Source: a virus
Lineage: Duplodnaviria > Heunggongvirae > Uroviricota > Caudoviricetes
Direction: 5' to 3' (one strand)
Virus record (IMG/VR): IMGVR_UViG_2711768017_000018
DNA: 51,595 nt
Positions 1 to 3,000 of the stretch are shown piece by piece. How positions within the stretch are numbered: position 1 is the first letter of the stretch; each line of letters opens with the position of its first letter. Made by a program: the position numbers.

Positions 1-3000
1 AAGAAATAGGGCTTCCACCTGGGAAGCCCTTTCTTTTTATAGTTCGGCTGTATGTAGGGTACAGCACGATGAATCTGTTAGAGGCGCAATAGTGACAGAT
101 TTGATTATCAATTCCTATTTTGTTCTAAGGATAAAACCTTAGGTTGTGATCATCCGCACAATCCCTTAGTAACGCCAGCGGTCATAACGCTGATATTTCG
201 GCACTTTTGGTGCTTTAATCGCCTTAATAACCCACACCACCGCAATCGCCAGTAGTAACCACGGCAGCAACTTAATCATCAATGCCAGCATACCGCCGAG
301 GAACATAATGGCCGTCGCCACAACCAGCGCGGCGATAATGCCCAGCAACGAAACGCCGGTGACCATCAGCATGACAAAAAAGCCAATCACAAAAAGTAGT
401 TCCAGCATGATGCTCTCCCAAATATGAAATCTCTTGCTGGCATTACAAGAATCATGCCAAAAATAATCTATTGATTTAACAGCAAAACGCCCCGCGACGG
501 TGCGCAGGGCGTGGTGAATTTGACTACTTTTTGGTGAAAAGTTAACGCTTATCCGCCACCAGTTTGAGCGCGTGTTCCAGCACATTAATGTCTGCACCCG
601 CTTTATGGGCATTTTCACTTAAATAACGCCGCCACTGCCGCGCGCCAGGAATACCCTGGAACAAGCCCAACATATGCCGGGTAATATGGCCGAGATACGT
701 CCCCTGGCTGAGTTCACGCTCAATGTACGGATACATGGCGCGCACTACCGCCACCGGATCGGCATCGGTATCCGAGGAACCAAAGATCTCCCGGTCTACC
801 GCCGCCAGAATACCCGGATTCTGATACGCCTCGCGCCCGACCATCACGCCATCCATATGTTGCAGGTGTGCTTTGGCCTCTTCCAGCGACTTGATACCAC
901 CGTTAATCGACATTGTCAGATGCGGAAAGTCACGCTTCAGTTGATACACACGCGGATAATCGAGTGGCGGGATTTCACGGTTTTCTTTCGGGCTTAACCC
1001 CGAAAGCCAGGCTTTACGTGCGTGGATGATAAACATCTCACACTCGCCTTTGCCGGAAACGGTGTTGATGAAATCGCAGAGAAATTCATAGCTGTCCTGG
1101 TCATCGATGCCAATACGCGTTTTCACCGTCACTGGAATCGACACCACATCGCGCATCGCTTTCACGCAGTCGGCAACCAGCTGCGCATTACCCATCAGAC
1201 ACGCACCAAACATGCCGTTCTGCACCCGGTCAGACGGGCAGCCGACATTCAGGTTGATCTCATCATATCCACGCGCTTCTGCCAGCTTCGCACACTGTGC
1301 CAGCGCCGCCGGATCGCTACCGCCGAGTTGCAACGCTACCGGATGTTCTTCTTCACTGTACGCCAGGTAATCACCTTTACCGTGAATAATCGCCCCTGTG
1401 GTCACCATTTCGGTATACAGCAACGTATTGCGGGAAAGCAGACGCAAGAAATAGCGGCAATGTCTGTCCGTCCAGTCGAGCATAGGAGCAATGCTAAACC
1501 GAGAACTCCAGTAAGCGCCAGTTTTTTCAGGCATCACGCTGGTTTGATTAGTTTTCTGTGTTTCAGGATTATCGTGCATTTTTGAACATTTCAGGCTATT
1601 TTTCTCGCGTTAGGTTCCCGCACAGGTTCCCACGCTTTATGGGAACCCGAAATAACGAGGTCGTGTAATGGCGTACTATAACATAGAGAAACGACTAAAA
1701 TCCGATGGCACACCACGCTATCGCTGTAATGTGATTATCAAAGAAAAAGGTGTTATCACTTACAGGGAAAGCAAAACATTCCCTAAACATGCTCATGCCA
1801 AAACATGGGGCGCACAGAAAGTGATGGAATTAGATCTATATGGCATTCCATCATCAAATGCTGTTGACGGACTTACAGTCCGTGACTTACTACACAAATA
1901 TTTAAATGACCCAAATGCCGGAGGTAAAGCAGGCCGTACTAAAAGATATGTGCTGGAACTGCTTATGGATAGTGACATCTCCGCGATCAAACTATCTGAA
2001 CTGACAGAAAATGACGTAATTGAACATTGCAGGCTAAGAAACAACGCTGGTGCAGGCCCAGCAACAGTCAGCCACGATGTTAGTTATCTTGGCAGTGTTC
2101 TGGATGCGGCAAAACCTGTATACGGAATCAATTACACATCAAACCCGGCGAAAAGCGCTCGTCCATATCTACTTAAACTCGGTTTGATTGGTAAATCAAA
2201 CCGTCGTAATCGTAGACCAGCATCTGATGAACTGAACATGCTCATTGAAGGCCTTCAACAACGATCTACTCATAAATGCTCAAAAATTCCGTTCGTTGAT
2301 ATCCTCAAATTTTCTGTGTGGTCCTGTATGCGAATCGGAGAAGTATGCCGGTTACGATGGGAAGATCTCGACCAGGAACAAAAATCTATACTAGTAAGAG
2401 ACAGGAAAGATCCACGTAAAAAGGAAGGCAACCATATGAAAGTTGCCTTGCTTGGGGAAGCCTGGGATATCGTCCAGCGACAACCCAAAAAATCAGAATT
2501 CATTTTTCCATATAACAGCACTTCTGTTACCGCAGGATTTCAGAGGGTAAGAAGCAAATTAGGTATTAAAGATCTGAGATACCATGATTTGCGTAGAGAA
2601 GGGGCAAGTCGCTTATTTGAGGCTGGTTTTAGTATTGAGGAAGTCGCTCAGGTTACAGGGCATCGTTCATTAAACGTGCTATGGCAGGTATATACCGAAC
2701 TGTATCCGAAATCTTTACATAATCGTTTTGAAGAACTCCAAAGGAGCAGAAATAAGACCTCTTGACACTGTTTATCCATACAGTTAAAAATAATACTGTA
2801 TACAAATACAGTGTAGGGGACTTTTATGCGTATTGAAATCTGCATAGCCAAAGAAAAAATGACTAAAATGCCAACCGGTGCTGTGGATGCGTTAAAGGAA
2901 GAATTAACCCGACGCATCAGTAAACGTTATGACGATGTAGAAGTGATCGTAAAAGCCACCAGCAACGATGGCCTTTCTGTTACGCGCACCGCTGATAAAG

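Follow-up and report, generated by a model that had tools for sequence, protein, structure and literature searches.

The left end of this stretch of DNA raises two questions: how can dusA appear intact when a phage of some 50 kb lies inside it, and by what means could that phage leave again when the gene next to its integrase is not an excisionase? The window (the whole stretch of 51,595 nucleotides analysed here) begins with Escherichia coli chromosomal DNA (pspG and dusA), and prophage runs from base 1484. The best explanation of the whole, to which we give a probability of about 0.93, is that dusA has taken a mEp460-like, lambdoid prophage of ~50 kb into its 5' end. Of 5,426 complete E. coli genomes, 726 contain the same int region; most E. 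coli genomes are without it. The features of the left junction are as follows.

542-1579, minus strand: chimeric dusA at attL, 345 aa (PF01207, E 8e-105)
542-1483, minus strand: chromosomal part of dusA (gene nt 97-1038), by comparison with K-12
1484-1579, minus strand: phage-supplied part of dusA (gene nt 1-96), by comparison with K-12 and the mEp460 attP
1471-1489: semi-conserved att region at attL, TCCAGTCGAGCATAGGAGC, which contains the crossover segment
1476-1483: 8-bp crossover segment TCGAGCAT, dusA codons 33-35 (Met-Leu-Asp)
1484-1667: P' arm of attP, now at attL; phage-borne dusA 5' end (1484-1579) plus spacer (1580-1667)
1580-1667: dusA-int spacer, 88 bp between the two start codons of the divergent genes
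1668-2765, plus strand: int, dusA-associated tyrosine integrase, 365 aa (PF00589, E 8e-21)

Alignment to the uninterrupted dusA of prophage-free K-12 defines both attL and its core. Window positions 1380-1483 are identical to K-12 and positions 1484-1582 are ~80% identical, and in the alignment of the dusA upstream region there is no K-12 homology beyond 1582. Counted along the gene, nucleotides 97-1038 carry 10/942 mismatches (1.1%) and nucleotides 1-96 carry 18/96 (18.8%), the density jumping exactly at the core. Compared with attP in the free phage mEp460, the same 96 nucleotides show a single difference. The amino-acid changes relative to K-12 DusA number 10, and all are within residues 3-30. 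Judged from these alignments, the present dusA N-terminus is phage-supplied, as the first-pass annotation had thought it might be. At attL the phage 5' end is joined in frame to the chromosomal remainder, giving a dusA of the full 345 codons with 10 substitutions; by analogy with published homologues, the element would also provide the promoter. The gene thus looks intact around a 50 kb phage because its first 32 codons are viral.

The anatomy of the junction and the parentage of each arm are directly visible in a four-way comparison of attB (K-12), attP (free phage mEp460), attL (the window) and attR (the near-identical genome CDF6). TCGAGCAT is the sole block identical across all four, and the parentage of both flanks switches there, at 1476-1483. 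Besides TCGAGCAT, attL (...GTCCGTCCAGTCGAGCATAGGAGC) and attR (...GGTACATCCTATCGAGCATTGGTGC) have scattered flanking bases in common. The mEp460 attP equals the left arm of attR, TCGAGCAT and the right arm of attL, and the P' arm at 1484-1667 has 2/184 mismatches to mEp460. The attL 19-mer also matches the published C. rodentium attB, TCCAGTCGAGCATGGGAGC, at 18/19 positions. From sequence comparison, then, attP and attB have recombined inside dusA in the classical manner.

The second junction lies outside the window: a 22-mer spanning the core, with up to 3 mismatches allowed, matches solely at 1462-1483, and an attR inside the window was rejected. Since none is inside, attR was read from near-identical genomes (CDF6 and A14), and its position rests on these rather than on the source genome. 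CDF6 is 99.97% identical to the final 14.8 kb of the window. Strain AR434 was discarded as a stand-in for the source genome: it gives the best left-end match, but its element is much shorter and chromosomal genes resume earlier. In CDF6, attR occupies L004 4803-4906, 255 bp past the window end; its stub has 0/96 mismatches to the K-12 dusA 5' end. In the source genome the right end would be expected to read GGTTCCCAATAGGCTCCC, ~40 nt, TCGAGCAT, then the native 96 nt of the dusA 5' end; in the near-identical genomes the att core and both arms are intact. Integration into dusA had been expected to leave a 5' region unlike that of prophage-free strains and a repeat of the core further right; the 18/96 mismatches are the one, and the core that recurs ~255 bp beyond the window with the native dusA start attached is the other. 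For genome annotation, the prophage boundaries are fixed at 1476-1483 on the left and ~255 bp past the window end on the right.

After circularization, attP would span ~250 bp: a P arm of ~64 bp with two repeats (GGTTCCC and GGCTCCC), TCGAGCAT, 96 dusA coding bases and the 88-bp spacer with three more repeats, followed by int. Int would swap strands between this attP and dusA, where codons 33-35 contain the same 8 bp, and attR would remain as a dead stub holding the native promoter and the first 32 dusA codons, ~255 bp beyond the window end.

The integrase had been described as dusA-associated, divergent from dusA and 88 bp from its start, and each of these points is borne out. The spacer is at 1580-1667, and Int is 98.1% identical, over 100% of its length, to mEp460 Int, which is listed among the dusA-associated integrases together with DC1 Int (Farrugia 2015, PMC4482086). 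With the Int of Burkholderia phage DC1 the identity is 33.8% (E 2e-57). Alignment with XerA places the catalytic residues at R222, H306, R309, H332 and Y342, a pentad that is invariant or nearly so across 41 homologues, and full-length lambda Int aligns over 364-368 columns with the whole Int model. Weak phage matches at ~25% identity carry a shufflon recombinase annotation, and the mEp460 Int annotation cites the INT_Rci domain (cd00796); Rci is the closest characterized relative of the family (Farrugia 2015, PMC4482086). Among 80 species-level relatives, 51 have dusA divergently upstream of int, and in Enterobacterales relatives the gap is mostly 88-91 bp, reaching ~100. As stated in the first-pass annotation, the integrase adjoins the tail-fibre end: tail-fibre assembly and side tail-fibre genes occupy 5309-9297 on the minus strand, within 2.6 kb of int.

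The means of leaving must be sought beside int and at the far end of the window.

2826-3074: DinI-like gene beside int, not an excisionase
50065-50346, plus strand: rdfN, prtN-like gene, probable recombination directionality factor, 93 aa (PF11112, E 3e-23)
50350-50375, minus strand: G+C-rich hairpin with a T run, terminator-like, from a consensus scan only
50392-51595, minus strand: reverse-oriented cargo between rdfN and the P arm/attR, from the CDF6 annotation

The neighbour of int is DinI-like, in agreement with the earlier remark that no excisionase lies beside the integrase. The RefSeq annotation of the near-identical CDF6 prophage lists no excisionase-type product besides the PrtN-family protein, and the idea of a second gene of this type was dropped. 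The PrtN-like gene, already proposed as the only excisionase-like candidate, scores 82 bits against a cut-off of 24 for PF11112 (PyocinActivator/PrtN) and falls in the RdfN family, where a homologue is a demonstrated directionality factor. That homologue is the PrtN-family RdfN of IMEVchUSA3, a dusA-specific mobilizable element of Vibrio cholerae: deletion of rdfN abolished excision, and Int with RdfN sufficed for a mini-element (Durand 2021, PMC8409611). By analogy, the PrtN-like gene is probably the recombination directionality factor (excisionase), and excision would need Int together with this PrtN-family RdfN. The protein is 97% identical to its mEp460 homologue and 51% identical to that of Kp4885-1, whose gene directly abuts the P arm; these values track those of Int for the same two elements (98% and 52%).

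The start of rdfN is 47.3 kb from the end of int and ~1.5 kb inside attR, and rdfN closes the rightward early operon. The 47 kb gap exists because the prophage map is linear; in the circle the two genes flank attP. In circular mEp460 they are 1.3 kb apart across attP, and the order prtN, attP, int is common to mEp460, Lys8385Vzw and Kp4885-1. The layout had been called unusual, a judgement that does not hold: prtN is found in 64% of dusA islands (Farrugia 2015, PMC4482086), and all eight E. coli elements of Table S1 in that paper have int at one end and, 2-4 genes in from the opposite end, prtN. Within this family the integrase ordinarily has no excisionase next to it, since the directionality factor, a PrtN-family protein, is coded across attP, and the apparent anomaly is resolved. 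The terminator-like hairpin sits between rdfN and the reverse-oriented cargo, which comprises two ORFs, one small and one of 139 aa, and a Panacea-domain gene (SocA-like antitoxin; PF13274, E 2e-18) whose first codon is formed by the last three bases of the window.

Between dusA and int, the spacer contains repeats that had been put forward as possible integrase-binding sites.

1613-1619, plus strand: repeat DR1, (A)GGTTCCC, candidate arm-type integrase site
1625-1631, plus strand: repeat DR2, (A)GGTTCCC(A), candidate arm-type integrase site
1641-1647, minus strand: inverted copy IR (GGGAACC on the plus strand), candidate arm-type integrase site

The direct and inverted copies reported earlier are these three, at 1613-1647, and GGTTCCC occurs nowhere else on either strand of the 51.6 kb window; all fall within 35 bp of spacer. 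The signal lies in this clustering, since the looser GGYTCCC shows no enrichment over the whole window (6 found, 10.9 expected). Further copies are present on the P arm of CDF6, mEp460, SMHB1 and Kp4885-1 (at distances of 61 and 50 bp from the core in both CDF6 and mEp460). The same layout on both arms is seen in SMHB1, Kp4885-1 and DC1, with repeats that differ from the core sequence. A direct pair at 10-13 bp spacing precedes int in 49/52 dusA-linked loci, as against 7% of shuffles, and the family as a whole retains a direct pair spaced at 12 bp; 27/52 of these loci, as against 0.2% of shuffles, have a third copy in inverted orientation. The layout therefore recurs across the family while the repeat sequence is lineage-specific. 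This comparative evidence strengthens the idea that the repeats are likely to bind integrase, as putative sites.

On the protein side, AlphaFold2 models predict an N-terminal beta3-alpha domain at Int residues 2-58, and the isolated domain is modelled as three strands and a helix with a pLDDT of 89. A Foldseek search with this isolated domain gave no significant match. In Pfam, residues 1-198 at E values up to 10 gave no arm-binding family and a sub-threshold Int_N match at residues 72-165 (E 0.034). The class of the repeat motif co-varies with the third-strand sequence of the Int N-domain. Such co-variation could also arise simply because two features separated by 100 bp are inherited together. 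The balance tips slightly towards the repeats being arm-type sites that the N-terminal beta3-alpha domain recognizes.

A wider proposal, that dusA-associated integrases act as heterobivalent enzymes and that each lineage has its own arm-site code, is put forward tentatively and at a little under even odds. In its layout, two RGNNNNCC 8-mers in direct orientation, one helical turn apart and in many cases accompanied by a third, inverted copy, lie 25-60 bp upstream of int, and a second pair lies 50-60 bp from the core on the opposite arm. The four variable bases then accompany the third beta strand of Int: CACC goes with KY[IV]YREN, TACA with KH[LI]HRET, GACA with KRI[FY]NES, and GTTC with [VI]IT[YF]RES. 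Another class of repeat is exemplified by AGCACCCC. No description of an arm-site code was found in the family-defining papers or in a full-text search on dusA with arm-type. If confirmed, the code would amount to a natural set of orthogonal integrase/attP pairs, all directed at a single conserved bacterial target. Since the spacer that has to accommodate both promoters is filled by the P' arm repeats, occupancy by Int could also control dusA expression. A simple sigma-70 consensus scan of 1400-2900 gave no promoter inside the 88-bp spacer.

The same crowding lends itself to another reading, in which the repeats are operators for RdfN or for a transcription regulator at the int and dusA promoters, or form an RNA or DNA hairpin in the int leader. 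They occupy the only 88 bp open to two divergent promoters, and DR2 with IR makes an 8-bp palindrome with a 7-nt gap, like a dimeric operator. The palindrome survives changes on both of its arms across lineages, as a hairpin also predicts, and the structural search for an arm-binding fold returned no significant match for the N-domain. Set against this are DR1, a third and direct copy placed outside the palindrome at one helical turn, and some Vibrio-type lineages that keep the direct pair alone. Related pairs 50-61 bp from the core on the opposite attP arm, in four elements, fit arm sites bridging to the core, and the motif class follows the Int N-domain sequence. The hairpin fails as the main reading of the palindrome, the RNA fold of 1600-1675 being no more stable than shuffles (z = -0.31). 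Overall, the operator or hairpin reading seems rather unlikely, and arm-type sites remain our preferred interpretation.

It is more improbable still that the prophage is a fixed, defective resident whose recombination module is present, whose life cycle is incomplete and whose att anatomy is historical. Two tail genes are split: J into overlapping ORFs at 16174-17385 and 17165-19810, and the second side-tail-fibre copy into overlapping ORFs at 12178-14811 and 14195-15445. The lysogen represented by the window may as a consequence yield no infective particles. There is also 6.6 kb more here than in the CDF6 prophage, and shorter elements with the same int are known (AR434 for example). Decay nevertheless sits poorly with an int, rdfN and P' arm that are 98%, 97% and 99% identical to those of an isolated phage, mEp460, with att sites whose core and arms are intact in near-identical genomes, and with head, terminase, lysis, antiterminator and repressor genes that are all annotated as intact in CDF6. 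Moreover, excision would need Int and RdfN alone, with or without tails. Finally, the notion that the dusA 5' divergence is plain allelic variation, with the element upstream in intergenic DNA and dusA undisturbed, draws on a superficially colinear gene whose homology to prophage-free strains reaches 1582, beyond the start codon, and is refuted by the mismatch jump exactly at the core, the near-perfect copy of the 96 nt in a free phage and the untouched native copy at the opposite prophage end.

The preferred reading, a mEp460-like prophage inside dusA, can be set beside known systems. The closest is mEp460 itself (JQ182728), with 98.1% identity for Int, 97% for the PrtN-like protein and 182/184 nt for the P' arm, and with the same order of prtN, attP, int, dinI and side tail fibre; Lys8385Vzw and the Table S1 elements of Farrugia 2015 are related. 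The window differs in having a UG17 reverse transcriptase and a SLATT gene between dinI and tfa, a second, diverged set of tail-fibre genes and, in the place of another gene found in mEp460, a Panacea-domain module between prtN and attP.

For the directionality factor, the model is the RdfN of IMEVchUSA3, likewise a small PF11112 protein whose gene lies across attP from int, and itself 29% identical to another family member, that of Pf-5 (Durand 2021, PMC8409611). The gene in the window is such a small PF11112 gene, coding across attP from int and co-inherited with it; it differs in being the last gene of an early operon of the phage, with a LexA/CI-like repressor gene upstream of it. The authors left the prophage-type excision signal open (Durand 2021, PMC8409611). 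This operon position makes prophage induction presumably the trigger for rdfN here.

The prophage Phi-stx2dact / Phi1720a-02 of Citrobacter rodentium is also lambdoid, enters dusA at ~100 bp and rebuilds it in frame (Balasubramanian 2019, PMC6328086). Its int lies by attL in a "noncanonical" orientation, and the attB 19-mer is one position away from the attL of the window. That phage differs in carrying stx2, and a core of 7 bases was called there, as against the 8 bases shared here (PMC6328086). With lambda, the element shares a three-domain tyrosine integrase, an attP of ~250 bp whose two arms carry repeats unlike the core, as in a heterobivalent integrase system, and a small directionality factor that excision would need. 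In lambda, however, xis and int are adjacent on the same side of attP with the tail end opposite, whereas here attP lies between rdfN and int. Instead of a lambda Xis-family protein the factor is one of the PrtN family, and the phage targets a protein-coding gene and rebuilds its 5' end.

Membership of the dusA-associated integrase (DAI) family is plain. The tyrosine recombinase, recognized by its domain, residues and homology, adjoins dusA at its 5' end and diverges from it. The dusA 5' end is replaced, semi-conserved att repeats are found at both ends, like the 21-bp att repeats that flank the published elements (Farrugia 2015, PMC4482086), and a prtN homologue is aboard. The element is a DAI-family member from a genus already sampled, with no substantive difference. 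A lambdoid prophage that sits in dusA and brings a replacement gene start is a system already described; this is an ordinary case of it, and current understanding is unchanged.

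The window begins in E. coli chromosomal DNA, which reaches into dusA; the prophage integrase gene diverges from that gene. Every element that the first-pass annotation described here is present in the sequence, starting with the divergent dusA and int genes, whose start codons flank an 88-bp spacer. The window is laid out as follows:

166-408, minus strand: pspG (PF09583), E. coli chromosome
542-1579, minus strand: dusA (345 aa; PF01207), E. coli chromosome, left end of the window
1580-1667: dusA-int spacer, 88 bp between the two start codons
1613-1619 and 1625-1631: direct copies of GGTTCCC in the spacer
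1641-1647: complement of GGTTCCC, the inverted copy in the spacer
1668-2765, divergent from dusA: tyrosine integrase gene int (PF00589)
2826-3074: DinI-like gene, next after int
3297-5196, plus strand: SLATT gene and reverse transcriptase gene
following these, minus strand: tail-fibre assembly, side tail fibre, lom, J and the remaining lambdoid late region
after the late region: lysis and antiterminator genes, then the replication/immunity region
right part, plus strand: LexA/CI-like repressor gene, yfdP, yfdQ, a hypothetical gene and the PrtN-family gene, in that order
50065-50346, plus strand: PrtN-family gene (PF11112, E 3e-23)

Alignment to the uninterrupted dusA of K-12, the check proposed earlier, defines attL and its core. 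The two sequences are identical at 1380-1483, about 80% identical at 1484-1582, and unrelated beyond 1582. Within dusA, 18 of the first 96 bases differ from K-12 (10 of the remaining 942), and all 10 amino-acid changes lie within residues 3-30. The junction sequence occurs only once in the window. As had been anticipated, attR lies beyond the window, and was located in strain CDF6, whose near-identical prophage matches the window's last 14.8 kb at 99.97%. There, 255 bp beyond the window end, TCGAGCAT follows the phage arm, and the next 96 bases match the native dusA start of K-12 without a difference, in a copy annotated as truncated dusA. The matching attP is found in the free phage mEp460: its left arm equals the phage arm of attR, and its right arm corresponds to window 1484-1667 with 2 mismatches in 184 bases, only 1 of them in the 96 coding bases, which bears out the suggestion that the dusA 5' end is phage-derived. 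An intact 5' region identical to that of prophage-free strains, with an unrepeated core, is contradicted by the divergence at 1484-1582 and by the core copy in CDF6. The octamer TCGAGCAT (window 1476-1483, dusA codons 33-35) is the sole block common to attB, attP, attL and attR. The parentage of the flanking bases switches exactly there on both sides, so strand exchange took place within this octamer. Judged from these junction sequences, the target gene was rebuilt by a classical attP x attB integration. In a subset of E. coli genomes matching the window's left end (H25-H29), homology stops at 1492, 9 bp past the core, and not at 1582. Further versions of the dusA 5' end are thereby suggested; they may come from different elements inserted in dusA, whose replacement ends diverge more.

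The integrase was correctly assigned to the dusA-associated family. It carries the catalytic pentad R222, H306, R309, H332 and Y342, and shares 98.1% identity with mEp460 Int and 34% with that of Burkholderia phage DC1, both named as homologues of dusA-associated integrases (Farrugia et al., 2015, PMC4482086). In 51 of 80 relatives (one genome per species), dusA lies divergently upstream of int. The gap is mostly 88-91 bp in Enterobacterales, up to about 100, so the window's 88 bp comes near to being constant in the family. The int region recurs in 726 of 5,426 complete E. coli genomes, and eight E. coli dusA elements, six of them called phage lysogens and two phage remnants, were already tabulated (Farrugia et al., 2015, Table S1, PMC4482086). 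About two dozen close Int relatives (52-66% identity) show no dusA in the available upstream sequence, which is at least 2.4 kb long (loci L032, L036-L038, L041-L049, L055-L057, L059, L061, L065, L067, L082 and L086), several being second copies in Xenorhabdus genomes. By analogy they presumably use other targets; dusB and dusC are among those reported for these integrases (Farrugia et al., 2015, PMC4482086).

The same phage end is seen in other settings. In E. coli AR434 (NZ_CP029122.1, L002/L003), the dusA-int-dinI-SLATT-RT left end is identical to the window's, and chromosomal genes resume far earlier: the element behind the same integration module is much shorter there and may be a remnant. 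On the 205 kb plasmid pEND_Eco 18005 (NZ_CP126947.1, L010 3981-4221), the phage-borne dusA start, repeats, int and dinI are joined to a truncated plasmid parB. That junction reads CTGTCCGGTGCCGCAT|AGGAGCAATG, with a plasmid side similar to the dusA attB CTGTCCGTCCAGTCGAGCAT, and looks like secondary-site integration. In the deposited "circular" genome of Escherichia phage Lys8385Vzw (MT225100.1, L006 ~3300-3320), unlike that of mEp460, two tandem copies of the core are present (TCGAGCATTCGAGCAT). The simplest explanation is an artefact: the two prophage ends, which both carry a core, were joined.

As first noted, int has no excisionase-type gene beside it. Its neighbour is the DinI-like gene, and the only gene of excisionase type annotated in the CDF6 prophage is the PrtN-family one. 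The absence had been called unusual, but it is the family norm: 64% of dusA islands carry a prtN homologue (Farrugia et al., 2015, PMC4482086), and in 8/8 E. coli entries of Table S1 it is found at the far side from int, 2-4 genes short of the element's end. The proposal of the PrtN-like gene as the excisionase candidate fares well, as its homologue RdfN serves a dusA-specific element as recombination directionality factor; rdfN deletion abolished excision, and Int plus RdfN sufficed to excise a mini-element (Durand et al., 2021, PMC8409611). In the same paper, int and rdfN are noted to lie on opposite sides of attP. In circular mEp460, 1.3 kb separates the end of the prtN-like gene from the int start, and in Klebsiella phage Kp4885-1 this gene directly abuts the P arm of attP. 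The 47 kb separation thus results from cutting the circle at attP. Judging by identities to mEp460 and Kp4885-1 (97% and 51% for the PrtN-like protein, 98% and 52% for Int), the two proteins diverge in step.

The GGTTCCC heptamer occurs just three times in the window on either strand, always in the spacer, 130-165 bp from the core. In both CDF6 and mEp460, the other attP arm has GGTTCCC 61 bp and GGCTCCC 50 bp from the core. The two elements are homologous from exactly the first P-arm repeat onwards, which gives an attP of about 250 bp. The layout recurs with other sequences in Salinivibrio phage SMHB1 (AGTCTCCC and related copies, both arms), Kp4885-1 (AGCACCCC-type, both arms) and phage DC1 (GGTACAT-type). 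In the 95 bp before int, a direct pair of 8-mers spaced 10-13 bp apart is present at 49 of 52 dusA-linked loci (7% of shuffles), and an additional inverted copy at 27 of 52 (0.2%). The repeats conform to RGNNNNCC, whose four central bases form discrete classes tracking the third-strand sequence of the Int N-terminal domain. This domain is predicted with high confidence as three strands and a helix, the topology of arm-binding and AP2 domains, and full-length lambda Int aligns along the whole model. The repeats, first read as possible integrase binding sites, are probable arm-type integrase sites. They could instead serve as operators, bound by RdfN or by a different protein that regulates the divergent promoters; the tracking of the Int N-domain by the central bases speaks against it, though such co-variation could be mere linkage. 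An RNA hairpin is unsupported.

Both prophage ends adjoin variable genes. The pair between dinI and the tail-fibre assembly gene is of defence type: a SLATT_5 membrane protein gene (PADLOC RTasSLATT, E 1.5e-56) overlaps a class UG17 reverse transcriptase gene (RT_UG17, E 1e-158). This position is empty in mEp460 and holds different genes in Lys8385Vzw, and is therefore a variable cargo slot adjoining int. Between rdfN and the P arm, 50392-51595 (minus strand) holds three reverse-oriented genes. One encodes a Panacea-domain (SocA-like antitoxin) protein and another is a 139-aa ORF that matches no family; these two may form a toxin-antitoxin pair. With an unrelated gene there in mEp460 and nothing in Kp4885-1, this is a second slot, beside attP. 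Relative to CDF6, 10706-17347 is about 6.6 kb of extra sequence, a second tfa/side tail fibre/lom set plus a 3' J fragment (~95% identity in aligned blocks), giving two tail-fibre gene sets in tandem. J is split into two overlapping ORFs (16174-17385 and 17165-19810), as is the second stf (12178-14811 and 14195-15445).

The first-pass reading of the dusA prophage is correct, but the system is well described, was first catalogued in this same host genus, and is not novel. The family-wide, lineage-specific arm-repeat pattern is the sole part for which no description was found in the literature searched; it is a modest lead and not a discovery. The published attB of a dusA-integrating Stx phage of Citrobacter rodentium is 1 base off the window's attL 19-mer, and that paper likewise notes a rebuilt in-frame dusA and a noncanonical int position (PMC6328086). 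In circular form, the element has nearly the gene order of lambda. However, attP lies beyond int in lambda, whereas here it lies between the directionality-factor gene and int, so that int ends up next to the tail-fibre end.
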